Below are positions 13,850 through 31,931 of a DNA stretch of 64,000 nucleotides, one piece after another. The translations under genes and the position numbers were made by a program. The stretch is from assembly GCA_035328405.1 (NCBI GenBank), contig DAOLIT010000028.1, positions 577-64,576 of the forward strand. The letters run 5' to 3'. The stretch comes from Pseudomonadota bacterium (GTDB lineage Bacteria; Myxococcota_A; Polyangia; Palsa-1104; JAEUJZ01). The notes below the pieces were generated by a model. It worked only from the letters and a program-made list of their open reading frames with translations. It was not told the DNA's origin and searched no databases. How positions within the stretch are numbered: the stretch's first letter is position 1; the number at the start of each line of letters is the position of its first letter.

Positions 13850-14225
13850 GCACAAGCTCCACAGTCACACTCCCGCTAGGTGTATGAAAGCGAATGAGCA
13901 ACTGACAGGGGAACCCCCAATAGCTAGACAGGATGGTGCCTTGCAGCTCAATGTAAAGCCGAAGTGTGTTGTCTCTGCCGTGTACTTTTAGACTGTTCAC
14001 GCGCAACCTGGGTTCGTACGTTGCGATGGTGTCGTTGATTTCACGCAGAAGAGTCTGTGTGGCGGCACTTCCGCCCGATTCCTTCAAGTAGTCTGCGGTG
14101 CCAAAGCTGTGAAGGAGTGAACCAAAGCCCCGGCGCGCATTGAGCACATGGTCTAGATTCCGCACCACGCTTTGTGCCTCTGTATCCTTGGGTGCGTCCG
14201 GCAAAAAGCGATTCAAAAACGACAC
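13839..14225 (-). CDS. tssE: TssE (gp25-like) baseplate wedge protein
   Basis: 128 aa fitting the GPW_gp25 pattern: VVRNLDHVLNARRGFGSLLHSFG...LLREINDTIATYEPRLRVNSLKV...LRLYIELQG. The GTG start is preceded by GGGGGAG. Confidence 0.85.
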   Translation of the reverse strand: MSFLNRFLPDAPKDTEAQSVVRNLDHVLNARRGFGSLLHSFGTADYLKESGGSAATQTLLREINDTIATYEPRLRVNSLKVHGRDNTLRLYIELQGTILSSYWGFPCQLLIRFHTPSGSVTVELVHGS

Positions 14226-15508: not shown

Positions 15509-16129
15509 CTACGTGGGGTTTGTGCGGCCCCACATCTTGGTGATCGGTGCCTTGTCTTTCGCAGCCAAGATGATCGACTGATTCAGACCTGCGGGGACGA
15601 TCTTGATCGAAAACGCATAGAAAGAGTTGTCTTGGATAGACAGGTCGTCATTGTCGTTGAGGTCGATCGCCAGCTCGCGGTCCCCTTCCTTTAAGACTTT
15701 GCCTTTCAAGAGTGGTGCATCAAAGCATGCATAGTATTTCTTGGCTGTTGAGAGTGGATCGTATTCAAAGACTTTCACTGCAAAGTCTACACTGATATCT
15801 GTCAGACTTGCGTACAACAGATTGACCAGCGTCTGTTTGAGCATAATGGGAACAAGTCCCTCTAGGATAATGGGATCAGTCGCTCCCAAGTCCCAGCGCA
15901 CTCGCGTCAACAGAGCCACCGCATTGACCTGCCCAGCGGTCTCGGCCCCACCCGCTCCCGCCGCCGCTGCTGGCGCCGCCGCAGCCAGACTCGGATCTTT
16001 GCAGGCGATGATGAAGGGGGTGACGATCAGTGACAAATCAAATTTGGCCATATAACCAAATGGTGCGCGCGAGTTGGGTTTGTGATTGATTGCTTGTTCG
16101 GGTGACAGTCGTTTGTCAAATACAAACAT
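15509..16129 (-). CDS. Hypothetical 206-aa protein occupying the Hcp/TssD position
   Basis: A strong AAGGAG sits 6 nt before the ATG. The gene lies between tssC and tssK, where hcp often sits. The sequence has alternating hydrophobic patterns that look beta-rich, plus an Ala/Gly-rich loop (AAAAPAAAAGAGGAETAG). I see no resemblance to canonical Hcp N-termini. Confidence 0.7.
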   Translation of the reverse strand: MFVFDKRLSPEQAINHKPNSRAPFGYMAKFDLSLIVTPFIIACKDPSLAAAAPAAAAGAGGAETAGQVNAVALLTRVRWDLGATDPIILEGLVPIMLKQTLVNLLYASLTDISVDFAVKVFEYDPLSTAKKYYACFDAPLLKGKVLKEGDRELAIDLNDNDDLSIQDNSFYAFSIKIVPAGLNQSIILAAKDKAPITKMWGRTNPT

Positions 16130-16177: not shown

Positions 16178-17665
16178 TTATCCCAGCCGACTTTCGAGCT
16201 TGAGTTCGATGTCCATTCCTTCAAACTGGATGTGCGGCAAAATGGAAACCTTGCAATCGTAGAAGCCGATGCGACCAGGCACAGCGTCCACCTTCACAGC
16301 GCAGGCCTTGAATGGAAAGCGGCGCATGGTGACGTCGTTCGGAGTCACCGCCGTGGTTACGTAGCGCGACAGCCAGCTCGTAAGTTGTTCCTTCAGGGAT
16401 TTGTCGTCTGAATTGTCGCCGATGTTGTCGCGCACGATGCTCTTGAAGTAGTGGGCGATTCGCGAAACAGAGAACGTGTACGCCAGGTTTGTGACCAGTT
16501 GGGAATTTTCGGTGTCCTTCGGATCGCGATATTCCTTGGGAAGCTTGATTGCGGGGACGCTGAAGAACACGGCTTCTGCTGTGCCTTTGCGATGTACCAG
16601 GGACGCAATTCCACAACGGGTAAACTCCAATTCCCTGTAGTCGGGAATGTACATCTCGATCGGAATCCGAACTTCTGATTCTCCACGGACGTTGAAGGTA
16701 TCGACTGGAAGACCCGCGATATGTCCGCCGCCCCCTGGTCCGCGGATGTACTGACACCAACCGGATTGTTCAAAGGAGCGGATCAGGTTGCGCGCCAACA
16801 GCAAAGCAGAGTTTCCCCACAGGTAGTTTTGTCGTTGTCCGCGAGTCACTTCCACAAACTGAAGTCCGGGGCTCGGATTCGTTTCCGGGTTCCAGGGCAG
16901 ACGAATCACGTACCGAGGGAAAGCCAGGCCGACGTATGCGGCTTCGGGGGTGTCCCGCAGGGCCAACCATTGACCGAATTTGGGTTGACTGAAAACACCC
17001 TCCAGGTCGCGAATGGCCTCGACTTCCTCGATGTCTTTGCAACCAAAAAACTGTGGTTTCACAGAGGTCAAAAACGGCGCGTGTGCCGCTGCCGCCACCT
17101 TGGACATATTCCGCAACCAGAACAGGTCGGCAGGGGACGTATCAAACTCATAAATACCCAACAAACATCCGTAGGGTTTGCCTCCGTACTGGTCGTACTC
17201 TGTCTTGTAGACTTTGCTGAACAGCGCGCCGGCGAACACGTCGGTGGAATTCGAGTCAAAATCCTGGTGCAGTTCTTCCTTGCTGGCGTCGAGCAACGCG
17301 ATCTGGATGTTGGATTCGAAATTGGTGGTTTCCACAAGACCATTGATTCCGCGCCAGGTGGCTTCCAGATCCTGAAAAACAGGGTGATGCAGAATTTCGT
17401 TCAACTGATCGTTCACCGTCTGGTCAATCTGGCGCACGACCTCGAGCACTTTGCCCTTTTCGATTCGCTCTGCAGACTCATCCAGGTTGCACAGCATCGC
17501 AGCCAAACCGGTCAGCAGACGCTCCTCCTGCGTGACATCCTCACGCGCAGCAACAAAGCGGTCTGAAAACATGCGGGTCAGACTTTTGGTTTCTTGTCCA
17601 AGTTGAGCGGCTTCCAGAATGCGAGGCAGAATGCGCGTCTGGGTACCAGTGGGTGTCTCGGCCAT
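16178..17665 (-). CDS. tssC: TssC / VipB contractile sheath large subunit
   Basis: 495 aa with classic TssC blocks: HHPVFQDLEATWRGINGLV, YGGKPYGCLLGIYEF, AAAAHAPFLTSV, AYVGLAFPRYVIRLPW, YLWGNSALLLARNLIRSF, RIPIEMYIPDYRELEF, VSRIAHYFK. AAGGAG precedes the ATG. Confidence 0.97.
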   Translation of the reverse strand: MAETPTGTQTRILPRILEAAQLGQETKSLTRMFSDRFVAAREDVTQEERLLTGLAAMLCNLDESAERIEKGKVLEVVRQIDQTVNDQLNEILHHPVFQDLEATWRGINGLVETTNFESNIQIALLDASKEELHQDFDSNSTDVFAGALFSKVYKTEYDQYGGKPYGCLLGIYEFDTSPADLFWLRNMSKVAAAAHAPFLTSVKPQFFGCKDIEEVEAIRDLEGVFSQPKFGQWLALRDTPEAAYVGLAFPRYVIRLPWNPETNPSPGLQFVEVTRGQRQNYLWGNSALLLARNLIRSFEQSGWCQYIRGPGGGGHIAGLPVDTFNVRGESEVRIPIEMYIPDYRELEFTRCGIASLVHRKGTAEAVFFSVPAIKLPKEYRDPKDTENSQLVTNLAYTFSVSRIAHYFKSIVRDNIGDNSDDKSLKEQLTSWLSRYVTTAVTPNDVTMRRFPFKACAVKVDAVPGRIGFYDCKVSILPHIQFEGMDIELKLESRLG

Positions 17666-17747
17666 AACGTACTCCTTTGGTTTCTGTTTCCGTCGCTGGG
17701 TTCCTCTTCAAACGGCAACATATTCGTTTGGGAATCCAATTCTGTTT

Positions 17748-18290
17748 CTACGCAAGCACCGTTCGGGGGGCCAACTCCTTGCGCGACAAAAGCTTCAGAT
17801 TCCCAAAGGGTTCAAGTTCCTTCCGCAGCTGCGCGCGTTCTGCTGCATTCCCAAGAATCTGTTGGAGCAGATTGCGCACATCCTTGCGGTTGTCCACTTG
17901 AGCCATCATTTCAAGGAGCACTTTTCGCAGAAGGAGAAGCGACCGAATCTGCGGAATGTTGCTGGCGACCTCAGCCGGATTGAAAGACTTGCGGTTCGTG
18001 ATGGGAATGTCGACTTCAAGCTCTCCAGCCTCGGGGTCGAGGTGATTTTTTGCGGCGAGCTTCAAACGGATTTTCATGTTTTCCATGAGCTCGTCGATGT
18101 TCTTGGCATCCAGGTTGCGTAGCCGGCGCGTTTCCAGATCGACACTGCGATCGGTAGACGTTCCATGCGACAAATCTGCCAGCACGATCAAACGAAACGG
18201 GAGTTCCACTTCCTTGAGCTGACCTTGCACATTGGTTTCGTAAGTCAGGTTGACGCGGGAGCGCGGGATCAATTGTTGAATCGACTTCAC
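17748..18290 (-). CDS. tssB: TssB / VipA contractile sheath small subunit
   Basis: The 180-aa product starts at GTG 18290 (VKSIQQLIPRSRVNLTYETNVQGQLKEVELPFRLIVLADLS...), preceded by AAGGAGGA 5 nt upstream. This matches the TssB pattern (R.RV.I.Y......veLPF...VlaDls; FNPAEVASNIPQIRSLLLLRKVL). The track ORF extends to 18542 with no support. Confidence 0.9.
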   Translation of the reverse strand: MKSIQQLIPRSRVNLTYETNVQGQLKEVELPFRLIVLADLSHGTSTDRSVDLETRRLRNLDAKNIDELMENMKIRLKLAAKNHLDPEAGELEVDIPITNRKSFNPAEVASNIPQIRSLLLLRKVLLEMMAQVDNRKDVRNLLQQILGNAAERAQLRKELEPFGNLKLLSRKELAPRTVLA

Positions 18291-18330
18291 GGTGTCCTCC
18301 TTATGGGGTGAGAGATACCGTGACTGTGAC

Positions 18331-18347
18331 AGCACTGACCATGCCAA
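18331..18347 (-). promoter_or_regulatory. Candidate sigma-54 (-24/-12) promoter for tssB and downstream genes
   Basis: The minus strand reads TTGGCAT-GGTCA-GTGCT, against the consensus TGGCAC-N5-TTGCW with correct GG/GC spacing. It lies about 40 nt upstream of the tssB GTG and 110-150 bp downstream of a palindrome array. Confidence 0.6.
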
Positions 18348-18453
18348 CTTCCCAATCACCGCCGCACTGCATTCGGTCAAAACTTTGCAAGGGAAACCCG
18401 GTGTTTGGGACATGCCGAGAGCATTCATCCCGACGACAAACGCGGGAGTGGTC

Positions 18454-18485
18454 TGTGCGCTCAACATGCGCACACTGCGCGCACA
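18454..18485. promoter_or_regulatory. Array of 11-bp-phased GC-rich palindromic decamers (putative upstream activator/operator sites)
   Basis: The plus strand reads TGTGCGC-TCAA-CATGCGCACA-C-TGCGCGCACA, with units starting at 18454, 18465 and 18476. The same motif family and phasing occur at 27050-27095. Confidence 0.6.
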
Positions 18486-18514
18486 TACTTGCTGTTGGGA
18501 AAGACATGTACCGT

Positions 18515-18967
18515 TTATGGGAGTCCCCTTCCCAAACGACATTCTTTGACTTGAGGAATGATCATTCCGGTTCGACCAAGCGGAACAGAAATCGTCCAGG
18601 GAAGTGGTGGAGGAAGCAGCAATTTCCAGCTCCCTGTCGTTGAATCCAGCAGCAAATAGATCCCCACAGATTTGTCACTGGGAACGGTCAAAAACATCCT
18701 CCTTTTTTGATTCGGTTCAAGCAAGAGAGTCCGAATCACCGTCTTGTCTGGCTTCACTGCAAGCTGAACCACATCCGCGTAACTTTCGTCGCGGTATTGT
18801 TCGGAAGAAACAGTCCGAACCAGCACATGCAGAGGCCTCCCCTGGTTTGTGTCTTGGTGGCTTTGGACCGTCACCCACATTCGCCAAGACGAACACCCAC
18901 TTTGCAACAAAAACAATGCAACCAAACACCACCATCCAAAAGAAAATCGACGCAGCGCGGGGTTCAT
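18515..18967 (-). CDS. tssJ: TssJ-like (VasD/SciN-type) outer-membrane lipoprotein
   Basis: 150 aa with a signal peptide and lipobox-like LLQSGC. The body fits the TssJ pattern (RPLHVLVRTVSSEQYRDESYADVV...RRMFLTVPSDKSVGIYLLLDSTTGSWKLLL). An ATGA overlap joins it to the tssM stop. Confidence 0.7.
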   Translation of the reverse strand: MNPALRRFSFGWWCLVALFLLQSGCSSWRMWVTVQSHQDTNQGRPLHVLVRTVSSEQYRDESYADVVQLAVKPDKTVIRTLLLEPNQKRRMFLTVPSDKSVGIYLLLDSTTGSWKLLLPPPLPWTISVPLGRTGMIIPQVKECRLGRGLP

Positions 18968-21900
18968 GGTGATGTAACCCGAAACAGCAACCAGGGATCG
19001 GGCGCGATCACAAAGCGAATCACTTGAACTTCTCCCGCTCCCTCATCGTGAATCCGCCACGTACTTTCCCCGTCGTTTTCCACAGTGCTTTTTTGCAGCA
19101 GCCGAAACAGACTCCACGCAGAATCGGCCACTTCCAACGTCTGCGTGTGTCTGCGTCCCGATTTGCTCGATGTACTTTCGATTCCCACAAGCGCGGCCCC
19201 CTGATTCCACCATTCGATCGATACCGAATCCGCAGTCGTGCGCTGGTTGAGTCCATAGAAGGTATTTTTTCCTACGCGCAAAAAGGCCACTGATGGCTGT
19301 ACTCCTGCACCCTCTTGCGCCCGTTTTCCTTGTACACCCCGAATCGTCAAACGGAGTGGTTGACGGCCTCCTTTTGCGTCGAAAAGTACCCGACTCAACT
19401 TTGCGATTTGGTTCACCGTTTTGAGCAACTCGGAAGGCAAAGGAAGGGCACCCAAACTGCTGCGCCGTGGTCGATACAAACCGTCTTGCAGCACAATTGC
19501 GGGTTCATAAAACGATCGAACATCTTGGAAAAAAGACCCACTGCTTTCGTTCAGCACATCGAGTTCAGAAGGCGCAACCTCACGTTCGGCGGAAGCGTGA
19601 AAGGGAAAACGCTGAAGAAGTGTCTGTAATTTTGGAAGAGCTTCTTTGTTCCAGTGGTCGGAAAGGGTCGTAGCAATGTCCTTTTCGCCTCGACGGTAAA
19701 CGGCCAAGAAGGGGTCCATAAAGGGTTTGCGGAATGCGCCCACAATCCCTGCTTTGTCCAAGAATTTCTCTGCTTCAGAAAGAGGAGAACCATCCCCTGA
19801 ACCGGATGGTTGCGACATCAAGAGGGCACTTTTACCAAGCGGTCCCAAACGATCTGCAAGACCTGTTTTTCCGTCGGGATTCTTTCCGTCGCCCTTGCTG
19901 TGTGAGCCCCACGGCGCATCCAAAGACTCGGCCAATTTGGCTATCGTGGACAAATAGGGTTCAAGCCCTTTCGGTTTCTCGTCACTCCCTTCCACAGTCG
20001 CATTCCCTGGCCCATTCCCAACCGTGTCATTCCCTTTCCCGGCGGACTTTGGCGGAGTGTCCGTTTTCTGTGTCTCCTTCTCTGTCACCTTCTCTTTTTG
20101 TGGGACTTCAGGATTCGGCTTTTCTCGACGACGCTTGAGCAAATCAGGATTCACAACCCGAACCAGGGGTTCAAATTCCGCAAGACAGACTGCCAGCGGT
20201 TTCAAAAACGGATCATCCAAACCCGACAAGGCTGCGTTTTCCGCCACGGTTTGTACATGCGCCACAAAACGGGAGCCGGGTTTCACGATGTCTAGCAACG
20301 CGGTATGAACATCCTCGACGGAATGGCCGCTCCCTCGAATGTGAAAGTGATAGCTCAAATAGTATCGGGACAGTCCTTTGCAGTACTTGTCTGCATACCC
20401 CTCGATCTCATTCCGAACCAAGTGTGTGAGTCGGATTTTGTCCTCGGGTCCAAGCGCCTTGCTTTCCGCAACAGCCCTCCGCAATTCGCGCACCAATGGA
20501 AGGACTTCATGGTCAAACACCGTTCGGTTGTATTCGTCTCCCAAATCATCCGCAGGGAGTTCTCCGGTGCTCAAAAGATGTGCAATCCGTGGTCGGAGTT
20601 CCTCGTGGCTAAAGGGTGGCATATCGTGGCTGTGCCTGGACGGACGACACGATCGATCGCGACTGCTCTTTCCCGCATCGTCACAAGGGACACATTCCCC
20701 TCTTTTTCGCTTCCGTTCGGACACACAGCGGCAACACGTTTCTCGACTTGTATGGGAATGGGAATGCCCGCCTTGATGAACATGGTGAATGTGATGGGAC
20801 AATAGCCACCGCTTTCGACTCCGCAAAAGAAGATCCAGCCACCCCTGTTCGCTGATCTCCAGGATTTTTCCATTCGGAAATGCAAAATGCGTGGGCTCTT
20901 GGGGGAGTGTGGATCTTATCGCAGAGACACCTGTTCGTTTCTCTTCTCCAGACGACAGTGCATTCACGTAGCGCAAGAGTTGATAAAGACTCATGTGCCT
21001 GTGTTTGCCGGATTGCGCGCTACTTTCTTCGATCAAGCGCAAAAGGAGTTCCAAGTTGGTCAGGTTGTCCACCAGCCAAGGTTCAGGGAGGAGGACTCCT
21101 GCATCTCCCCCAAACAGTTTGTTCATGTCGAGCGGGGTTTCCTCTGCCAACATTTGATAGACGCGGCGCAACACGCTTGCTCGTCGCACACGCTCGATTG
21201 TTTCGCGCAGATTCAGGGTCTTTTTTCGCAAGTTCTCGAGTTGTTCGTTGGAAATCGAAGGCTGCAAAATCGCGTGCGCGATCGTTTGTACATACTCCTG
21301 CCACGGGCGAAGATCCGTCACGGGGTACTTCGCGGATTCGGTAGGAATCGGCGGCAAGAGGAGCAGAGCCTTGTCTTTCCAGGCTACCGGACTGTTTGCA
21401 ACGTAGTCTGTCAGCAGATCCACTGGAAGAGACAACGTTTCTGAAAAATCGCTGCGCTGCGTATCCAAAAGAGTTCCGAGGGCGGTTCCTTTTGCGGCAT
21501 ACAGCGCCGCAAGTGCATACAGAATTTTGTCCCTTGCACGTTGACGCACACCCGATTCCAGCGCCGGTCGCAGATAACCTTGCCGCAATCCCTCCACAAA
21601 ACTCTGTTCTGCGTCCGCTTTTTCCTTTCGTGCCAGCAAACGGAACAAACGAAAACGCTGCTCGTCTTGACGAAAATGATCGAGAGCCTGAGCGGCTTCC
21701 CGTTCACTGCGGCGAACCACATCCGATTCCCGCGGTGAAGACAGCGATTCCTGAGCCCGCCTCACACTCCTCTCAAACGCCTCGGTTGCGTCGGTGGCCA
21801 GCTTTACTTTGTGCGCGTGCCTGTGTGTTAAGTACCAAATCGGAAAGGCCCCCCCGAATAAAAGAAGAAGACTCAGCAACGTATGCAAGGGTCGAATGCC

Positions 21901-22974
21901 CAGCGCCAAAAACCAGCGCCAGATTCGCGTAAAGAAGCCGGGCGCTCGCGTTCCCTTGGCTAACACCGGATCAAACGGATTCCCAACCTCTTCATCCGAT
22001 GCAAGAGAGAAGAAGTACACAGCCTGTACATCGGGCCGAACAGAGGTTACTGCACCCTCGACAAGTGCTGTGATAAATGCGCGCACAGGCGTCATCAATT
22101 CCTGTGCTGAATGCAGTATCTCAATGCTGGCTTCAAACGGACCCACCGGCATGGTCGTCAGTGCGCGCGGCAGGTGTTTCTCATATCCTTGCAGAGCGGC
22201 CCCCAAACTGCTCTGCGCGTCGCCACCGGCATCCAGAACGAGTGGAATTTTGTTTTTGTGCAAAAAGCGCGAAAATTCCGAATACCCCGAAATCCGTTCC
22301 ATGTTCGTCAGGCATAAACGAGTATGAATCGGTGCCCCATAGATCTCTGTAAGCAGATTGATTTTTCCCCGAATCAGCTTGGCTTGTTGTCGCAAAACAT
22401 CGGGACTCATTGTGGACAGCACAGAGACCTTGAGAACGATGAGTACCGTCGGGATTTGTGCGGACGGAAGCGACGTTTTCCACAACTTTCGGAAACCATC
22501 GTGCGCTTCTCTGCTGGCCGATTGAAGCAGTGTTGAGGAAACTTCGTGTATCACGCACCGACTACCCAAATAAATCTGCAAAAGGGGGTCAGCCGTATAA
22601 CTTGGGAGGAACTGACTGGCTTGGCTCTGCCAATCGACACGCCGACTGATGAGCGCACTCTTGCCAACACCAGGATCACCAAAGACCAGAAAGTGATCAT
22701 AGTCCGAGAGTGCGACGCGAACACTGGCAGGAAGGGGTGCAAGAAAGCGCTGCCATATGGACAGAAGCCGTTTGCGGTTTGCTTGGTTCACTGCTCCTTG
22801 GCTGGGTCGTTCCGTAGGTGAACGTTTTCGAAACAGACGGACAACCAGATAGATCCCCCCGATCACGAAGGAAACAAACAGGATGGCGAGCAGAATCAGC
22901 GCGACAGTGTTCGTCCCACGAACCATTCCATCCGCCAACCCTGATGACATTCCGAGCATGGCTATCCCAACCAT
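18964..22974 (-). CDS. tssM: TssM / IcmF-family membrane-complex protein with a Walker A motif and a His/Cys-rich insertion
   Basis: 1,336 aa. It has an N-terminal TM, then DHFLVFGDPGVGKSALISR (Walker A, as in IcmF/TssM), then a TM block around FFTRIWRWFLALGIRPLHTLLSLLLLFGGAFPIWYL, then a long C-terminal region. Confidence 0.9.
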   Translation of the reverse strand: MVGIAMLGMSSGLADGMVRGTNTVALILLAILFVSFVIGGIYLVVRLFRKRSPTERPSQGAVNQANRKRLLSIWQRFLAPLPASVRVALSDYDHFLVFGDPGVGKSALISRRVDWQSQASQFLPSYTADPLLQIYLGSRCVIHEVSSTLLQSASREAHDGFRKLWKTSLPSAQIPTVLIVLKVSVLSTMSPDVLRQQAKLIRGKINLLTEIYGAPIHTRLCLTNMERISGYSEFSRFLHKNKIPLVLDAGGDAQSSLGAALQGYEKHLPRALTTMPVGPFEASIEILHSAQELMTPVRAFITALVEGAVTSVRPDVQAVYFFSLASDEEVGNPFDPVLAKGTRAPGFFTRIWRWFLALGIRPLHTLLSLLLLFGGAFPIWYLTHRHAHKVKLATDATEAFERSVRRAQESLSSPRESDVVRRSEREAAQALDHFRQDEQRFRLFRLLARKEKADAEQSFVEGLRQGYLRPALESGVRQRARDKILYALAALYAAKGTALGTLLDTQRSDFSETLSLPVDLLTDYVANSPVAWKDKALLLLPPIPTESAKYPVTDLRPWQEYVQTIAHAILQPSISNEQLENLRKKTLNLRETIERVRRASVLRRVYQMLAEETPLDMNKLFGGDAGVLLPEPWLVDNLTNLELLLRLIEESSAQSGKHRHMSLYQLLRYVNALSSGEEKRTGVSAIRSTLPQEPTHFAFPNGKILEISEQGWLDLLLRSRKRWLLSHHIHHVHQGGHSHSHTSRETCCRCVSERKRKRGECVPCDDAGKSSRDRSCRPSRHSHDMPPFSHEELRPRIAHLLSTGELPADDLGDEYNRTVFDHEVLPLVRELRRAVAESKALGPEDKIRLTHLVRNEIEGYADKYCKGLSRYYLSYHFHIRGSGHSVEDVHTALLDIVKPGSRFVAHVQTVAENAALSGLDDPFLKPLAVCLAEFEPLVRVVNPDLLKRRREKPNPEVPQKEKVTEKETQKTDTPPKSAGKGNDTVGNGPGNATVEGSDEKPKGLEPYLSTIAKLAESLDAPWGSHSKGDGKNPDGKTGLADRLGPLGKSALLMSQPSGSGDGSPLSEAEKFLDKAGIVGAFRKPFMDPFLAVYRRGEKDIATTLSDHWNKEALPKLQTLLQRFPFHASAEREVAPSELDVLNESSGSFFQDVRSFYEPAIVLQDGLYRPRRSSLGALPLPSELLKTVNQIAKLSRVLFDAKGGRQPLRLTIRGVQGKRAQEGAGVQPSVAFLRVGKNTFYGLNQRTTADSVSIEWWNQGAALVGIESTSSKSGRRHTQTLEVADSAWSLFRLLQKSTVENDGESTWRIHDEGAGEVQVIRFVIAPDPWLLFRVTSP

Positions 22975-23040
22975 GTGGTTCTTCCCACCAAACCGTGCAA
23001 AGTACTCCTCCTGGAAATTCGACCCCGCTTTGCGTCACTA

Positions 23041-24516
23041 CTACAATACTTGTCGTTCTCTCTTTGTATGTTGGTTCTTCGTTCTGTCTTTTCCCTTTCC
23101 ATTACCCCTATTGTTATTTTTGTCGTGGGACTTGAGTTTGGTTGTACCGCTGTCCTTTTTGCCGATGTCCTTCACATTCTGTGTTTCTGTTTCTTCAGCA
23201 TCTTTCGGCTTTGGGTTTGCCGCGAGTGCCGTCAGCACGACTCTTTCCGTGAGGTCTTTGCTCCGATCACAGGGAATGCGGAATTCTGCATATCCCTCCT
23301 TTCGGATAGACAGAACGTCCACGGATCTTGCATAGGTTCGCACTTGAAAAAGGGGTGTCTGTCCCAAGCTTTGTCCGATGGCGTCAAAGACCTCCGCGCC
23401 TTGCGGTTCGCTGTCGATGCTCCAACGTACTTGTTGTGGAGTAGAAGACTGTCCCGATAGCAGAAGCCGCATCACGATCCCGATTCCCAGAAGTCCTACG
23501 AGCAAAAGCAAACCTGCTCCAATTGCGACCCCACGATTTTCCGAAAGTGGGCGCAAGAGCATCGAAAATCCCCCTTCTGCGTCTTGCCGAAGACCAAAGG
23601 TTGGATTCCCCATCGGAAGGGATGGAAGATGTGACGGACTTGTATCCAGAATAGGAATGAGACCTGTGACTGATCCGCTCAAACGACCCAGGGTCGCAGC
23701 GATTTCTGCTGCACTTGGGCGGGAATCCGGCTGTTTGGCGAGCATTCTGTTGACGAGTCCCAAAAGCTCTGCGGGAAGACCTGGAACTTTGCTTTCAAGT
23801 GCAGGCGGCATTTGGCCGATGTGCGATGCCATCATCGCGCTGTCCGCCTTCATGGCTTCTACAAAGGGGTGTTCACCGGAAAGGGCCTCAAACAACATCA
23901 CGCCAAGGGAATACACATCACTACGATCGGTAACTTCACGAGCATCTCTGCACAATTCGGGAGACATGTATGCTGGCGTTCCCATCGACACCCCCATTCG
24001 TGTCAGGGGTTGTGCGGTTGCGCTTGTGGCGAGTTTTGCGATTCCAAAATCGAGGATTTTGGGCCGCTCACCGTCTGGTCCATCGGTGTCTGCAACAATC
24101 AGTACGTTTCCGGGCTTGAGATCCCGATGCACAATTTTTTTGGCATGTGCGGCTTGGAGTCCTGATGCAATTTGACGAAAGGTCTTCATGGCCTGCATCG
24201 GGTCCATTGAACCTCCCTTGGTCATCCGCTGCCGCAGGGTTTCTCCTTCCAGGTACTCCATCACAATGTATGGAGCACCCTCCTCCGTCGTGCCAAAGTC
24301 ATATACATTGACGACGCTGGGATGATTGATGATGTTTGCGGCTCGCGCTTCGTTGAAAAAGCGCTGTACAAATTCGGGATCTTGCTGAAGTTCTTTGGCC
24401 AATGTCTTGATCGCGGCACGTCGTTCGATTTGCGGATGGAATGCTTCATAGACAGAGCCCATTCCCCCTGTTCCGATCAATCGGACAATTTGATACGGAC
24501 CAATCTGTTTCTCCAA
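23041..24516 (-). CDS. Hanks-type Ser/Thr protein kinase, membrane-anchored, with a C-terminal PEGA-like domain
   Basis: Kinase motifs: GTGGMGSVYEA, AAIKTL, HRDLKPGNVLI, DFGIAKL, GTPAYMSPE. TM: VAIGAGLLLLVGLLGIGIVM. PEGA-like: WSIDSEPQGAEVFDAIGQSLGQTPLF...IRKEGY. The tail is Lys-rich. The TTG start is preceded by AAGGAGA. Confidence 0.95.
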   Translation of the reverse strand: MEKQIGPYQIVRLIGTGGMGSVYEAFHPQIERRAAIKTLAKELQQDPEFVQRFFNEARAANIINHPSVVNVYDFGTTEEGAPYIVMEYLEGETLRQRMTKGGSMDPMQAMKTFRQIASGLQAAHAKKIVHRDLKPGNVLIVADTDGPDGERPKILDFGIAKLATSATAQPLTRMGVSMGTPAYMSPELCRDAREVTDRSDVYSLGVMLFEALSGEHPFVEAMKADSAMMASHIGQMPPALESKVPGLPAELLGLVNRMLAKQPDSRPSAAEIAATLGRLSGSVTGLIPILDTSPSHLPSLPMGNPTFGLRQDAEGGFSMLLRPLSENRGVAIGAGLLLLVGLLGIGIVMRLLLSGQSSTPQQVRWSIDSEPQGAEVFDAIGQSLGQTPLFQVRTYARSVDVLSIRKEGYAEFRIPCDRSKDLTERVVLTALAANPKPKDAEETETQNVKDIGKKDSGTTKLKSHDKNNNRGNGKGKDRTKNQHTKRERQVL

Positions 24517-24556
24517 AATGACTAGTCTCCTTGATCAAGCTACATGTTGGGAACAC

Positions 24557-25498
24557 TCAACGAGGGAATCGTCTCCTGTGCTTTCTCTTGCCGGAAGGAG
24601 GAGGTTCAACTTCAGGGGAATCTGTCAACGGCGACGGTGGTGGCTCTACGACTGGAACATGAGGGGGAATGTAGAGTGGAAGGATCGGGACGACTGATGG
24701 CACCTGTCTTTTCGCAGGGGCAGCGGTGTCTTCCTGTTTGGCTTGCAGAAACAGAGGTTGCAAACTGGGCAATGGTTTCACAGGTTCTGAACTCTGTTCC
24801 AACACCGACTTCGAGGGCCTGCGAAATGAGAAGGAGAACGTCGGCACACCCATAAGGAGAGCAGCGCTTCCACCCGCTACGAGACCAATTCCTAACGAGC
24901 GCGTTGAGTACACCTGTTCACAGACCAGAGCAGGGGCTATTGCATCGCGCGTACATGTTCCGTTAAGTCCCAACATACCACCCCCAATGCCGATTGCACC
25001 AAGGCCTAGGAGACCCGTCGTCACACCAAGGGGGCGCAACCAAATTGGCATCGGTTTCTCTTTGGCAACGTACAAGAGTTTCGTTTTCTCGATCACCTGC
25101 GGAGCATTCGCAAGCCGTTCCTTTTCACGCGCTTCCACAAGGAGTGCATCGAGTTCTGCGGCTGTCTCGGGAGTCATTCCCGGATGTACCTTCCGGTACA
25201 ATTCGAGGTACACATGAGCCTCGCTCCACTTTCCAAGTTTGCGGTACGCTTGACCTATGTTGTACAGCAGCGCCGGAAGAGGGCGCACCGCATACGCCGC
25301 TTGCAAAAAGGGGATTGCAGCTTGGTAGTCTCCACTGCTGTACGCTTTGCGTGCGGCCTCATACGCCGATGCAAAGCCTTCCCCCTTCGCCGCTAGGTCT
25401 TCCTCCTGTGCCGCGCAGTGTGCCTGCGGGATTTCGCAAAGAGAGAACACAAACACTGTCGTCTGTACAATGTGTGCAAGAGGACTCTTCGTGGACAT
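24557..25498 (-). CDS. TPR-repeat membrane protein with a signal peptide
   Basis: The start at ATG 25498 (MSTKSPLAHIVQTTVFVFSLCEIPQAHCAAQ) avoids overlapping the upstream kinase stop at 25503. TPR-like: YSSGDYQAAIPFLQAAYAVRPLPALLYNIGQAYRKLGKWSEAHVYLELY. Gly-rich TM segments and a Pro-rich C-terminus follow. Confidence 0.7.
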   Translation of the reverse strand: MSTKSPLAHIVQTTVFVFSLCEIPQAHCAAQEEDLAAKGEGFASAYEAARKAYSSGDYQAAIPFLQAAYAVRPLPALLYNIGQAYRKLGKWSEAHVYLELYRKVHPGMTPETAAELDALLVEAREKERLANAPQVIEKTKLLYVAKEKPMPIWLRPLGVTTGLLGLGAIGIGGGMLGLNGTCTRDAIAPALVCEQVYSTRSLGIGLVAGGSAALLMGVPTFSFSFRRPSKSVLEQSSEPVKPLPSLQPLFLQAKQEDTAAPAKRQVPSVVPILPLYIPPHVPVVEPPPSPLTDSPEVEPPPSGKRKHRRRFPR

Positions 25499-25502
25499 CG
25501 TA

Positions 25503-26990
25503 TTACTTCCACAAATCCACTTGTACCTTCCCATCCGTCGTTGCTTCGGAATCCCTTCTTCGTCCTCCCTTTCCAGGTTTGGGTCCCTTTCCGCTTGTCT
25601 TTTTGTGGTCTATTGTCCCGCCGGAAGGAACCTTGTGTGAATCGTTTTTTACATCCAAATGTTCTGGTTCTATAACCGATTGGCTCAGATCAGGCAGGAC
25701 CAGTGGAAAGGGCTTTTCCGATGGATTAGTAGTCGTTTGAGGGCTCGGAAGAGGAGGTTGACTTTTCTTTTGGGCGAAGAAAAACCCCGCAAGAACCACA
25801 AGAACTGCAAGCATGATCAACAGAAGTGATGGCGTTGTACGTTCTCTCTGGGCAGAGCCGGTCTGAATCAATTCGCCACGCTTGCTTGCCCGATTTCCCG
25901 TCGTCAATTGAGATTCAAGGAGGCCGACTGGTTCCGTTACTTTTCGTTGTTGGTTGGTGTAGCCAAGGCAAGGGCGTTCGGAAATGGAGCCATCCGAAAG
26001 ACCCGTTTGGGGGATGGTGGTCAGCGCGTCCACAAGCTCGGCCATCGACGGGCGATTTGCAGGTTGTTTGTCCAGCAAACGATGAACGAGTGCGTCGAGA
26101 GATTCAACGACATGGGGAACTCTGTCCTTCAAACGAGGCGGAGTGCCAAACATCTGCAACGCAAACAGTTCACCAGCAGAGTCCGATACAAAAGGGGGTT
26201 CACCATACAAGAGTTCATACAGAATGATTCCAATGGAATAGACATCCGTTTTTTCATCAGGAGGGGAAGACGCACGACATTGTTCAGGGGACATGTACAT
26301 GGGTGTGCCAAGGAGTGTCCCCGTTCGCGTTGCTGCGTTCCCATCGGGACGTGTCCCCTCGTCGGGTAGAAGCTTTGCGATCCCAAAGTCTAGGATTTTC
26401 GCTCTTTTCCCGCACGTTGCATCCAGGTCCTGCACCAGAATCACATTCTCCGGCTTCAAATCACGGTGGATGATTCTTTTTGCGTGTGCCGCAGCCAGTG
26501 CAGAGGCCATCTGCGACACGATCTCTGTGGCACTGGTTCCTAAGTATGCTTCATCCTGAGCTTGTCTAAGCGACCTCCCGTCGAGATACTCCATCGCGAT
26601 GAACGCTTCCCCCAGATCTGTTTTTCCGTGCTCCAAAATGCGCACGAGGGACGGATGCTGCACCATTCCGGTCGCTTTTGCCTCCAGGAAGAAACGATTC
26701 ACGGCCTCCGGGCGACTGCTCAATTCAGGAAGCAGAACTTTGATTGCGGCTCTCTGTTGGTTGTCTGTGTCCAGGGCTTCGTAAACGGCTCCCATTCCCC
26801 CTTGTGCGATTTTTCGCACGACTCGATATCGACCCACCAACGATCCAATCACTGGGTCAGGAGGCTGGTTTGTGGGGGTGTTGCTGTCCACGTCGTGCCG
26901 TACCTCTTCGGCCCAATTCAGGGGACCGACCTTTGGCGGAAGCGAGAAAGAGCAAGCCCGGTGCCAAACAACCGCTGCGGTCTTATGCAC
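25503..26990 (-). CDS. Hanks-type Ser/Thr protein kinase, membrane-anchored
   Basis: Kinase motifs: AQGGMGAVYEA, AAIKVL, HRDLKPENVIL, DFGIAKL, GTPMYMSPE. TM: LLLIMLAVLVVLAGFFFA. The track start (GTG 26990) places a near-perfect sigma-54 promoter inside codons 8-14, so the real start is probably downstream, e.g. GTG 26891. Confidence 0.9.
   Translation of the reverse strand: MHKTAAVVWHRACSFSLPPKVGPLNWAEEVRHDVDSNTPTNQPPDPVIGSLVGRYRVVRKIAQGGMGAVYEALDTDNQQRAAIKVLLPELSSRPEAVNRFFLEAKATGMVQHPSLVRILEHGKTDLGEAFIAMEYLDGRSLRQAQDEAYLGTSATEIVSQMASALAAAHAKRIIHRDLKPENVILVQDLDATCGKRAKILDFGIAKLLPDEGTRPDGNAATRTGTLLGTPMYMSPEQCRASSPPDEKTDVYSIGIILYELLYGEPPFVSDSAGELFALQMFGTPPRLKDRVPHVVESLDALVHRLLDKQPANRPSMAELVDALTTIPQTGLSDGSISERPCLGYTNQQRKVTEPVGLLESQLTTGNRASKRGELIQTGSAQRERTTPSLLLIMLAVLVVLAGFFFAQKKSQPPLPSPQTTTNPSEKPFPLVLPDLSQSVIEPEHLDVKNDSHKVPSGGTIDHKKTSGKGPKPGKGGRRRDSEATTDGKVQVDLWK
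26951..26967 (-). promoter_or_regulatory. Candidate sigma-54 (-24/-12) promoter for the kinase-TPR-kinase-tssM-tssJ genes
   Basis: The minus strand reads TTGGCAC-CGGGC-TTGCT, a full match to TGGCAC-N5-TTGCW. It lies 85-130 bp from the palindrome array at 27050-27095. Confidence 0.65.
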
Positions 26991-27049
26991 ATCGAGGCAG
27001 GTTCAGGTTGCGACCTGCCTCTGGGCATTCCCAACGCCCACATTTCGAG

Positions 27050-27095
27050 TGTGCGCTCGATGTTGTGCGCACAGTGTGCGCGCATTGTGCGCACA
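27050..27095. promoter_or_regulatory. Array of 11-bp-phased palindromic decamers in the divergent control region (putative activator/operator sites)
   Basis: The sequence reads TGTGCGC-TCGATGT-TGTGCGCACA-G-TGTGCGCGCA-T-TGTGCGCACA, with full decamers starting at 27064, 27075 and 27086. TGTGCGCACA is a perfect 10-bp palindrome. Confidence 0.65.
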
Positions 27096-27290
27096 CTGGT
27101 TGGGGGGAGGTGCTCATGAAGAAAGTGAGGTCTTTTTCCGGGCAATTCGCGTTTGCGAAACCATCGAACGTGGGGCGGCTGGGCGTGAAGATCCAACAGA
27201 AGTCAGGCCTTGCATCGCGTAGAGCAATACGTCACACTGACGCACCACGTCCAGTGTCATGGACGGCTTTGAATCGGTAACAAGGCTTTC

Positions 27291-27306
27291 CGGCATGTTG
27301 GTTGCT
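27291..27306 (+). promoter_or_regulatory. Candidate sigma-54 (-24/-12) promoter for the regulator and NHL genes
   Basis: The sequence reads CGGCAT-GTTGG-TTGCT with correct GG/GC spacing. It lies about 75 nt upstream of the TTG start at 27380 and about 200 bp from the palindrome array. Confidence 0.55.
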
Positions 27307-27379
27307 TCTGGTTGAAGCTCGGTAGTTTTCTGCCTATTCATGGCTGTCTAGGCACCGATTTCAAGCGTAGGAGACCGCA

Positions 27380-28978
27380 TTGAGTAGTGAGCACCGTACT
27401 TGTGCCCCATCCGCCATCACGGGACCCGAGTTACCCATGGATACTGAGCACTCTCAACGAGCAGAATGCCTGGCTCTGGTGATTGCATGGTCCGCACGCG
27501 AACCCCATCGCGTTGGAGAAACCGGTTTGCTCTACCCCGAGAAACCGGAGCACATCTTGGGACGAGACCCGACGAACTTGTTAGAAAATTCGGGGGCAAT
27601 AGCTAGACTCCCTTTGGGTTCTGGGATCACCCCTAACGGCGAACTCCTTCCTGAAGCAGACATGCAGGGAGAACCCGTGGTTTTCTTTCGCCAACGACCA
27701 CAGGGTCTGGGCTTCAGCTCAGAGACTGAAAGGGGTAGCAGTATCCTGCACGGAGAGTCTCTTTCCCGGAGACAGCTCGCCATCCGTGTTGGAACTGACT
27801 CTCTGTTGGTTCGCAACATTGGTCGCTGTCGTTTGTCTGTGAATGGCCAAGTCGTGCGAGAAGCAATCGTTCGTTCGGGAGACACCCTTTATCTTAGGAA
27901 TCAACTTCTCCTGTATTGTACGTATCGTCCCCTTATCGCTCCTGGGCTGAAAGCATACCCTGTGGATCGTGTTCCCCCTTTTGGCGAGCCCGATCGAGAT
28001 GGAATGATCGGGGAGAGTCCAATCATGTGGAAACTCCGCGATCGGATCGCTGCGTGTGCGCGTACAAGTTATCACGTCCTGGTCGTGGGGGAGAGTGGTT
28101 GCGGCAAGGAGTTGGCAGCCCAAGCGATCCATTCGCTGTCGAATCGCGCGCATCGGAAACTTGTGGCAGACAACATCGCCGCGATTCCTCCCAGCTTGGC
28201 TTCTGCGCTTCTGTTTGGAAACAAAAAAAACTTTCCCAACCCTGGCATGGAGGAACGTGCGGGGTTGCTTGGATCGGCACATGGGTCTTCTCTGTTTCTC
28301 GATGAAATCGGAGACATGCCCGAGGAAGTCCAGCCGTTGTTTCTTCGCGTAACAGAGCACAATGGGGAGTACTTTCGTTTGGGAGAGGAGAATAGACTTC
28401 AGCAGTCAGACTTCCGTCTGATTGGAGCCACGAATCGACCCGAACAGATGCGGTATGAACTCAAGCGTCGTTTTCAACGCGAAATCCGCGTTCCAGGGGT
28501 TAATTCTCGCAAAGAAGATATCCCCTTATTGATACGCCATTTGCTGAAACAGCAGGCTGAAGCCGACGACGTGGATGCTTCCAGATTCATCGTAAATGGA
28601 TATCCAATGGTTCATCCACAACTCGTCGAGCAACTTATCCATCACAATTATAAAACACATGTCTCTGAGGTGATGTTTTTGCTCGGTCAAGCGATGTCGG
28701 AAAGTGACCACGACATCATTATGCCGCTTGGGTCAGGAATTAAACCAGAAACAGCCGCACGGCCTGCTCGGATCGATTCGGCAAAACGCTCATCTCCGCG
28801 TCCTCTTCCGTCGATAGATGAAGTGAGGCGTGCTTTAGATGAGCAAAAGTGGCACATCACGCGCACGGCCAATGCACTGGATATTTCGCGTGATCAACTC
28901 AACCGATTGATACGAAAAGAAGGCCTTCAAGTTGATCGAGGCAAGCAATCTATGCGCAGTTTCATTGAGGGAAAATAA
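27380..28978 (+). CDS. Enhancer-binding-protein-family AAA+ regulator (FHA-like N-domain, AAA+ core, Fis-type HTH) with a degenerate GAFTGA loop
   Basis: Walker A: VVGESGCGKELAA. Walker B: SLFLDEIGDM. Other AAA+ blocks: RLIGATNRP, VPGVNSRKEDIPLLIRHLL. C-terminal HTH: KWHITRTANALDISRDQLNRLIRKEGL. The N-terminal FHA-like block is SLSRRQLAIRVGTDSLLVRNIGRCRLSVNGQVV...GDTLYL. The GAFTGA position reads NFPNPG. The TTG start is preceded by AGGAG 6 nt upstream. Confidence 0.88.
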   Translation: MSSEHRTCAPSAITGPELPMDTEHSQRAECLALVIAWSAREPHRVGETGLLYPEKPEHILGRDPTNLLENSGAIARLPLGSGITPNGELLPEADMQGEPVVFFRQRPQGLGFSSETERGSSILHGESLSRRQLAIRVGTDSLLVRNIGRCRLSVNGQVVREAIVRSGDTLYLRNQLLLYCTYRPLIAPGLKAYPVDRVPPFGEPDRDGMIGESPIMWKLRDRIAACARTSYHVLVVGESGCGKELAAQAIHSLSNRAHRKLVADNIAAIPPSLASALLFGNKKNFPNPGMEERAGLLGSAHGSSLFLDEIGDMPEEVQPLFLRVTEHNGEYFRLGEENRLQQSDFRLIGATNRPEQMRYELKRRFQREIRVPGVNSRKEDIPLLIRHLLKQQAEADDVDASRFIVNGYPMVHPQLVEQLIHHNYKTHVSEVMFLLGQAMSESDHDIIMPLGSGIKPETAARPARIDSAKRSSPRPLPSIDEVRRALDEQKWHITRTANALDISRDQLNRLIRKEGLQVDRGKQSMRSFIEGK

Positions 28979-31552: not shown

Positions 31553-31931
31553 GTCACTTTCAATGTATGTAAAGTGGTGTAAGTATGCCAAACTCATATT
31601 CCACAGACTTGTGCCTGAATGTGGTTTATATGTTTAACACTCAAACAACGAAGTTCTGTGTAAAGAAGATAGATATGATATGTTTGAAATGTGATAATGT
31701 AATACTCAATGAGATGAGTATGTCATCCATGTGAACCTACAATCCACCTTTTCCATCCCGTATCAACCCTATTCCCGTCGAAGAAGCACGTTTCGGATTG
31801 ACAGACCTGTGAAAAAAAACTGGATTGTGTATCTGGGCTCTGAAAGGGGGCCTCTATGGGGTGTGTATGCGTACAAAAGACGGGCCCCTGTGTGACCTCA
31901 TGCTAGGAAGGGGGAATGTCTACCGTGGGAA

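Follow-up and report, generated by a model that had tools for sequence, protein, structure and literature searches.

Cluster-encoded activators that work with RpoN are known from several type VI secretion systems (T6SSs): VasH in Vibrio cholerae, Aeromonas and V. fischeri, and Sfa2 in the Pseudomonas aeruginosa H2-T6SS (PMC10482370). The stretch analysed here (the window, 64,000 nucleotides of contig DAOLIT010000028.1) carries a T6SS gene cluster of an uncultured Polyangia/Myxococcales bacterium (Myxococcota) from activated sludge, in which the region 26891-27379 separates a minus-strand operon headed by a serine/threonine (Ser/Thr) kinase gene from a plus-strand regulator gene. As with VasH and Sfa2, the activator gene lies within the cluster and sigma-54 promoters precede the T6SS operons (PMC10482370); unlike those systems, the regulator here has an FHA-fold sensor, lacks the GAFTGA motif and is divergent from the Ser/Thr-kinase operon, and the cluster, hosted by Myxococcota, contains IglE. 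We consider it probable that 26891-27379 is a divergent T6SS control region, with sigma-54 promoters and an enhancer array, that is opened by the cluster's own GAFTGA-less regulator; it is well supported that the region belongs to a known type of sigma-54/enhancer control (VasH, NorR, PexR) and has a single unusual trait.

Three-site enhancers have been described for NorR-norVW of E. coli and PexR-ahpC/katB of Myxococcus xanthus, where they are thought to nucleate the activator hexamer (PMC2831303, PMC12754779). The present locus shares with these the three tandem dyads upstream of a sigma-54 promoter and a regulator gene divergent from its target, with the intergenic sites shared, whereas its units are of 10 bp at 11-bp spacing instead of 16-bp CACCG-n6-CGGTG or GT-N7-AC sites, its sensor is FHA rather than GAF, and the regulator gene itself has a candidate sigma-54 promoter. 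Enhancer-binding proteins with FHA domains were reportedly described in M. xanthus by Jelsbak, Givskov and Kaiser in 2005 (cited in PMC12288465). Our regulator resembles them in combining FHA, AAA+ and helix-turn-helix (HTH) domains in Myxococcota, with a presumed coupling to Ser/Thr kinases, but its FHA domain is too divergent for Pfam and has a long insert, and the GAFTGA loop is replaced, whereas the M. xanthus proteins have a canonical GAFTGA. A membrane Ser/Thr kinase and an FHA reader within a T6SS cluster are likewise found in PpkA-PppA-Fha1 of the P. aeruginosa H1-T6SS (PMC10482370); that pathway acts post-translationally, on assembly, whereas in the present cluster a transcription activator carries the FHA domain as part of the same protein, and no PP2C phosphatase was detected by Pfam in the 32,330-bp unit that makes up the window. 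The window is an exact twofold repeat of this unit (0 mismatches), and every element described below recurs at +32,330.

Sigma-54 promoters were sought with the pattern TGGCACN5TTGCW over the 64-kb window, using shuffles as a chance control, and were taken to be elements with GG and GC dinucleotides exactly 10 nt apart in TGGCAC-N5-TTGCW. RNA evidence consists of assembled, unstranded metatranscriptome contigs (runs numbered X), from which the sigma factor and exact start sites cannot be read; related loci are numbered L. The features of the control region are as follows.

25503-26891, minus strand: membrane Ser/Thr kinase 1, corrected start GTG 26891, 462 amino acids (aa) instead of 495 (Pkinase E = 1.6e-44)
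26903-26909, minus strand: Shine-Dalgarno-like GAAGAGG, 11-nt spacer to GTG 26889-26891 (sequence)
26921-26926, minus strand: 5' boundary of the kinase-operon RNA contigs (three metatranscriptomes)
26951-26967, minus strand: sigma-54 (-24/-12) promoter of the kinase/membrane-complex operon, TTGGCAC-CGGGC-TTGCT (unique perfect consensus, conservation)
27050-27056, no strand assigned: isolated half-unit TGTGCGC, 14 bp before array 1 (sequence)
27064-27095, no strand assigned: array 1, TGTGCGCACA g TGTGCGCGCA t TGTGCGCACA, three decamers spaced 11 bp apart (pattern scan, Tandem Repeats Finder, conservation)
27291-27306, plus strand: candidate sigma-54 promoter of the regulator gene, CGGCAT-GTTGG-TTGCT, predicted start near 27317 (conservation)
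27380-28978, plus strand: regulator with FHA-fold, AAA+ sigma-54-interaction and HTH domains, 532 aa (Pfam, fold search)

The only zero-mismatch match to the sigma-54 pattern in the window, TGGCACCGGGCTTGCT (26951-26966, minus strand), is doubled solely by the window repeat; chance would give 0.11 such matches per 64 kb, and none of the shuffles contained as many as two. An earlier reading of the sequence (the original prediction) had placed a full consensus -24/-12 element here, within codons 8-14 of the 495-aa kinase open reading frame (ORF) that starts at GTG 26990, and had judged that start probably wrong and GTG 26891 plausible. Its coordinates are confirmed, and the comparison of reading frames, the 462-aa gene call in ENA (start GTG 26891; the Logan call is 495 aa) and the ends of RNA contigs all agree with the shorter gene. 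The 16 nt of the promoter are identical in L001 and L085, and the GG-N10-GC core is kept in L002, L003 and L084. L001 and L085 read these conserved bases in another frame, and their in-frame upstream translation is unrelated to that of the window; in L002 a stop lies two codons before the kinase's own ATG (MEEPQRVDTP...), both downstream of the L002 -24/-12 element. The kinases of the window and of L001 share a V-D-S start, and over this region the two loci align in four stretches only, namely the start-codon region, the promoter, the array and the plus-strand promoter (aligner-offset).

The RNA contigs on the kinase side end at 26922 (X25), 26921 (X30) and 26926 (X28), none spanning 26990. 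That from X25 (10.5 kb, depth 51) covers 16424-26922, and the same run has zero RNA over 26923-27255, although its depth on the side of the regulator is 22. In the DNA metagenomes, contigs continue without a break across both this boundary and the one at tssB described below, so the breaks in the RNA contigs here are not assembly artefacts. Since the RNA ends at 26921-26926, GTG 26990 is off the mRNA, whilst GTG 26891 and its GAAGAGG are on it. GTG 26891 as the kinase start, with 26951-26966 non-coding there, is supported by three independent lines; the promoter probably drives the kinase-TPR-kinase-TssM-IglE operon, and the mRNA begins between the promoter and GTG 26891. The downstream part of this operon comprises the following.

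18515-25534, minus strand: genes probably driven from 26951-26967 beyond kinase 1 (Pfam, 10.5-kb RNA contig)
24557-25534, minus strand: TPR membrane protein (Pfam)
23041-24516, minus strand: Ser/Thr kinase 2 (Pfam)
18964-22974, minus strand: IcmF/TssM-like protein (Pfam)
18515-18967, minus strand: IglE-like lipoprotein (Pfam)

A sigma-54 transcript is expected to begin about 12 nt past the -12 GC. With the C of that GC at 26952, the start is predicted near 26940; the RNA ends lie 26-31 nt downstream of this C, which is compatible with transcription beginning slightly upstream of them.

A second copy of the array and promoter design, missed by the original prediction, lies upstream of tssB.

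18454-18485, no strand assigned: array 2, reading TGTGCGCGCA g TGTGCGCATG t TGAGCGCACA on the minus strand, three units at 11-bp spacing (pattern scan)
18331-18346, minus strand: sigma-54 promoter of the tssB-tssC (sheath) operon, TGGCAT-GGTCA-GTGCT (2 mismatches, GG and GC intact; counterparts in relatives)
18294-18302, minus strand: 5' boundary of the tssB RNA contigs (seven metatranscriptomes)
17748-18290, minus strand: tssB (VipA), corrected start GTG 18290 after GGAGG 18296-18300, 180 aa (Pfam, RNA boundary)

This promoter (TTGGCAT-GGTCA-GTGCT when extended by one base, with the C of GC at 18332) begins 107 nt beyond array 2 and has counterparts in TGGCATGTTCGCTGCT (L085) and TGGCACGTCGGCTGCT (L086), as well as in the promoters that precede tssB in L007 and L009-13. 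In seven runs the tssB RNA contigs end at 18294, 18297, 18299, 18300, 18300, 18300 and 18302, that is 30-38 nt downstream of the -12 C and similar to the kinase side; these runs have no RNA upstream of the boundary and little over the upstream genes, from which it follows that tssBC has its own, stronger promoter. Public calls extend TssB to 264 or 256 aa (starts 18542 and 18518), and the extension holds both the promoter and array 2, whereas Pfam T6SS_VipA spans residues 7-159 of the 180-aa protein and the L085 gene call is 181 aa. Kinase 1 and tssB have thus both been over-extended across their own promoters in public gene calls, and a like error is likely elsewhere in these genomes. The tssB leader is predicted to form a hairpin (18287-18323, minus strand; -12.7 kcal/mol, z = -1.96) with the GUG start in its 3' arm and AAGGAGG partly in the loop, which may mean translational control, or nothing.

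The decamers of array 1 start at 27064, 27075 and 27086, and Tandem Repeats Finder reports a period-11 array; for the triple-decamer pattern the chance expectation is 0.00, and no shuffle yielded such a triple. Of the three perfect palindromes originally described, the positions and 11-bp spacing stand, as does the half-site TGTGCGC at 27050, but only the outer two are perfect, the middle one, TGTGCGCGCA, being one base off; as a whole the array is palindromic at 28 of its 32 bp. Its centre is upstream of both divergent promoters, ~127 bp from the -12 GC of the kinase promoter and ~225 bp from that of the regulator promoter, whilst the centre of array 2 lies ~137 bp upstream of the tssB -12 GC, so that the array-to-promoter distances of these two promoters, kinase and tssB, differ by exactly 10 bp. 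Upstream activator sequences of enhancer-binding proteins are typically placed roughly 80-200 bp from the promoter. Histograms of GCGC distances over ten intergenic regions, a crude measure, made no periodicity visible.

Array 1 is conserved in L001 and L085, and three copies of TGCTCGCGCA stand in its place in L002, L003 and L086. Two arrays per cluster, in matching position relative to sigma-54 promoters, are found in the window, L085 and L086, for which the tssB and kinase-regulator sides compare as follows.

L085, regulator 75% identity, tssB side: TGGCATGTTCGCTGCT and three 11-bp-spaced units (988/999/1010); kinase-regulator region as in the window
L086, regulator 63% identity, tssB side: exact TGCTCGCGCA x3 (3895), upstream of TGGCACGTCGGCTGCT
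L086, kinase-regulator region: exact TGCTCGCGCA x3 between minus-strand and plus-strand -24/-12 elements

L007 and L009-L013 differ in having tssB itself as the divergent partner of the regulator gene; each side has its -24/-12 element, and GCGC-rich repeats lie in between. The repeat unit differs by lineage (TGTGCGCACA against TGCTCGCGCA), jointly at both arrays and together with the HTH sequence of the regulator; this co-variation points to the cluster's own DNA-binding protein, and the arrays are accordingly best read as probable binding sites of the cluster regulator. The idea that one array serves both divergent promoters gains from the conservation of the array and from the tssB copy with its like geometry.

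The regulator starts at TTG 27380, after AGGAG 27369-27373, instead of at ATG 27437, because PSAITGPEL, upstream of that ATG, is conserved as protein in relatives. Its central domain is an AAA+ domain of the enhancer-binding-protein type (Sigma54_activat, PF00158, E = 5.3e-35), with Walker A and B as GESGCGKE and LFLDEIG; HTH_8 follows at E 2e-4 (21.5 bits against a cut-off of 22), and many homologs carry a precomputed PF02954 match. The N-terminus has no Pfam match even at E = 10, PF00498 included. Modelled with AlphaFold2 (mean predicted confidence, pLDDT, 83.4), it is predicted to fold as an FHA domain, an eleven-stranded beta-sandwich, and the top 20 Foldseek matches are all FHA domains, led by OdhI, GarA, FhaA, CT664 and DgcB, with TM-scores of 0.74-0.82 for bacterial targets. 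Amongst the FHA residues, G61-R62 and S129-R130 are invariant, N155 is present in 36 of 38 homologs, and the usual His position is an invariant Gln132. Thr14, in the disordered tail ahead of the FHA core, is kept in 34 of 38. With OdhI/GarA and Bdellovibrio DgcB, its best structural matches, the regulator shares a conserved N-terminal threonine before the FHA core; in those systems the output is enzyme inhibition or cyclic di-GMP synthesis, whereas here it would be transcription, and phosphorylation of Thr14 is putative. By analogy, Thr14 is a candidate phospho-acceptor of an OdhI/GarA/DgcB-like switch. The residues form a Thr-x-Pro (14-16, window 27419-27427), of which the Pro is kept in 26 of 38 homologs.

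In the mechanism that we propose, the arrays would be enhancers bound by the C-terminal HTH of the AAA+ regulator, three phased units nucleating an active oligomer that would contact sigma-54 RNA polymerase by looping and so open all three promoters; the outcome would be positive feedback on the regulator and its kinases, with induction of the sheath operon. As input, the two membrane Ser/Thr kinases would phosphorylate a threonine of the regulator, most plausibly Thr14 in the N-terminal tail, and the FHA domain would read the phosphothreonine as an OdhI/GarA/DgcB-type switch, making the circuit a transcriptional version of the PpkA-Fha1 threonine-phosphorylation pathway. If this is true, the locus runs from kinases through a phosphothreonine-FHA switch to a hexamer on a 3 x 11-bp enhancer, switching on an IglE-type T6SS with positive feedback: a compact regulon of three sigma-54 promoters, two arrays, one regulator and two receptor kinases in an abundant uncultured sludge predator lineage, for which metatranscriptomes already show the sheath operon with its own promoter.

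Several observations weigh against this scheme. The spacing of array and promoter is not the same in L001 and L085 (a difference of 7 bp), so that a strict helical phasing of the two is not conserved, and we make no claim on such phasing; further, the three 11-bp units cover just 32 bp, tighter than NorR or PexR sites. On both the kinase and tssB sides the RNA ends fall 14-26 nt downstream of the starts predicted 12 nt from the C, a shortfall that probably arises because assembled RNA-seq loses the outermost 5' ends. On the regulator side, RNA contigs at 27256 (X25), 27281 (X26) and 27301 (X31) begin upstream of the predicted start. The regulator has no GAFTGA, NFPNPG being aligned to KGAFTGAD of ZraR; an x-F/Y-P-x-x-x loop occurs in 117 of 120 homologs and GAFTGA in none of the 120. 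Finally, the distant family members L087 and L088 have no clear sigma-54 promoter nearby; these members, which sit outside T6SS clusters, neither back nor refute sigma-54 coupling of the family.

The loop bears most directly on the main rival, in which the promoters are sigma-54-dependent and the arrays regulator-bound but the GAFTGA-less regulator cannot activate, a canonical activator encoded elsewhere supplying the ATPase stroke and the regulator serving as repressor, anti-activator, architectural factor or mixed-ring partner. The loop is family-wide, of the form N-F/Y-P-N-P-G with P286 and M290 invariant and F/Y at 285 (residues 278-293, window 28211-28228). GAFTGA is regarded as essential, and proteins with defective versions (TyrR, DhaR, HupR, VpsR) are treated as sigma-70-dependent (Francke et al., PMC3162934); Pro at loop position 4 is common amongst such defective loops (PMC3162934), and the same is seen here, with Phe aligned. 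PexR shows that such proteins can repress (PMC12754779), and in L086 another FHA activator, whose loop is the near-canonical GCFTGA, is encoded 2 kb from the orthologue. The window's regulator resembles TyrR, DhaR, HupR and VpsR in having an AAA+ sigma-54-interaction domain without an intact GAFTGA, but differs in having a conserved -24/-12 promoter to either side of it, where those act at sigma-70 promoters. Its ATPase motifs are intact (Walker A and B, arginine-finger regions) and the loop retains an aromatic residue; neither the 32-kb unit nor the flanking DNA available from the window lineage contains a second activator gene, and the sole conserved repeated motif near the promoters co-varies with the regulator lineage. 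Weighing these, we regard a non-activating regulator as rather unlikely, and this one as putatively able to activate sigma-54. The broader proposition, that an FHA-coupled AAA+ family (here mostly from uncultured Myxococcales/Polyangia) has swapped GAFTGA for N-F/Y-P-N-P-G and still activates sigma-54 promoters, is possible but falls short of probable. An FPNPG loop was not found described in the literature and supplements searched, and a large GAFTGA-less regulator family placed between conserved -24/-12 promoters offers a direct test of whether GAFTGA is strictly required.

The second activator of L086 (13667-16334) is an FHA and AAA+ protein encoded 2 kb downstream of the orthologous regulator, and beside it lie genes for a further Ser/Thr kinase and for an IpgD-like phosphatase.

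The promoter of the regulator gene itself raises a further alternative, namely that the 27291-27306 element is unused and the regulator expressed solely from an upstream non-sigma-54 promoter, with no autoregulation. By sequence, CGGCATGTTGGTTGCT (27291-27306, plus strand) has 2 mismatches with GG and GC intact, and such matches are at chance level (44 seen against 39 expected); the three RNA contigs that begin upstream of its predicted start, together with a weak, tentative TTGCAT-N17-CACACT at 27210-27238 (hand-picked, 8/12, under the scan threshold), also favour this alternative. Conversely, the element is conserved as a footprint in L001, L084 and L085 (CGGCACAATGGTTGCT and CGGCACACCTGTTGCT), a -24/-12 element is likewise placed before the regulator gene in L002-4, L007, L009-13 and L086, and GG-N10-GC recurs at the matching position before orthologous regulator genes in at least 10 loci whose flanking DNA fails to align. 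RNA contigs start also at 27333, as the promoter predicts, and at 27372 and 27427, and a sigma-70 and terminator scan of 26850-27450 found nothing. We hold an unused element to be unlikely. The upstream RNA starts mean that the regulator gene is fed by another promoter as well, and a basal promoter joined by a sigma-54 feedback promoter is the simplest reading of the regulator-side RNA. The original prediction of a plus-strand promoter at 27291-27306 thus stands in that the element is present and conserved, although by sequence alone it is a chance-level match; that of autoregulation is supported by this conservation only and qualified by the upstream RNA starts, and autoregulation remains a putative property of the regulator.

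Very unlikely, in our view, is the notion that the decamer arrays serve a global regulator encoded at an unlinked locus, or are GC-rich tandem repeats with no function. A degenerate triple-decamer pattern run over metagenomes returned five simple arrays in unrelated contigs without sigma-54 context, and 0 further regulon members, but in three lineages the paired arrays keep equal placement from sigma-54 promoters and switch their unit jointly, and they form conservation islands in otherwise unalignable DNA. The reading of the 495-aa ORF from GTG 26990 as the real kinase, with the promoter-like sequence coding, is the longest ORF and is used by one public gene call but is already contradicted and negligibly probable, there being no RNA over 26927-26990 and the extension not being conserved as protein, with L001 reading the bases in another frame and L002 having its stop before the ATG.

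Within the control region, a plus-strand 54-codon ORF (27117-27281, GGAGG-N5-ATG) was rejected as a gene, as it is not conserved in L001 and has no X25 RNA. A 75-aa minus-strand gene call between array and regulator promoter (27114-27341) is also not conserved in L001; X25 has no RNA over most of this stretch. In L002 (819-850), L003 (3739-3770) and L004 (151-182) a 12-bp dyad, TGTGCGCGCACA, abuts the -24 of the regulator promoter, a position that would suit repression over activation. In L001 (5899-5931) and L085 (9971-10003) the first ATG of the regulator ORF lies ~4 nt past the start predicted from the -24/-12 element, and the regulator mRNA of this lineage may be leaderless, or the start mis-set. 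Three DNA metagenomes (X2, X4, X5) carry T>C at position 27228 as their majority base; amongst 17 strain differences listed across 17500-28300, none falls within a promoter hexamer or decamer. An Rfam scan of 17500-28000 matched zero families.

The window comes from a 64,763-bp ENA contig (NODE_30_length_64763) that traverses the unit twice and holds the regulator gene twice, 32,330 bp apart. The window contig and the 82-kb contig L078 are identical through position 31809 and divergent afterwards, two further contigs terminate exactly at 31809, and the 82-kb and 22-kb assemblies of the locus are linear and run from 31810 into other genes (a 255-aa kinase, aconitase). A circular 32-kb element was therefore rejected, the other assemblies being linear and flanked on the right by other sequence, beginning at 31810. 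The 32,330-bp cycle is a graph path via a branch point between the NHL gene and tssG, with no evidence of circularity, and the repeat has the appearance of an assembly cycle or of a structural variant rather than of a plasmid. Near-identical DNA occurs in many activated-sludge and wastewater runs, and regulator orthologues (54-75% identity) are found in metagenome-assembled genomes of uncultured Myxococcales/Polyangia.

By Pfam, the cluster matches VipA, VipB, GPW_gp25, TssF, TssG, VasE and DotU, and IcmF weakly, together with IglE_N and DUF4280, and the core genes tssB, C, E, F, G, K, L and M are present. Hcp, VgrG and ClpV were not recognised by Pfam amongst the ORFs scanned; with the IglE_N lipoprotein, this may mark a non-canonical T6SS subtype. 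The minus strand encodes, in order, a Ser/Thr kinase, the TPR membrane protein, Ser/Thr kinase 2, the IcmF/TssM-like protein, the IglE_N lipoprotein, TssB and TssC, then a 206-aa protein, TssK, TssE, a 2311-aa protein, TssF and DotU, and finally two unknown proteins, a DUF4280/PAAR-like protein, one more unknown and TssG; the plus strand encodes the Sigma54_activat and HTH_8 regulator followed by an NHL-repeat protein. The 206-aa protein behind tssC (15509-16129, minus strand) has no Pfam match, nor has the 2311-aa protein (6920-13855, minus strand), whose gene contains 12/24-nt tandem repeats. The TssM-like protein has a His-/Cys-rich insert at residues ~865-970 (window ~20060-20380), HHIHHVHQGGHSHSH..CCRC..C..C, whose composition suggests metal binding.

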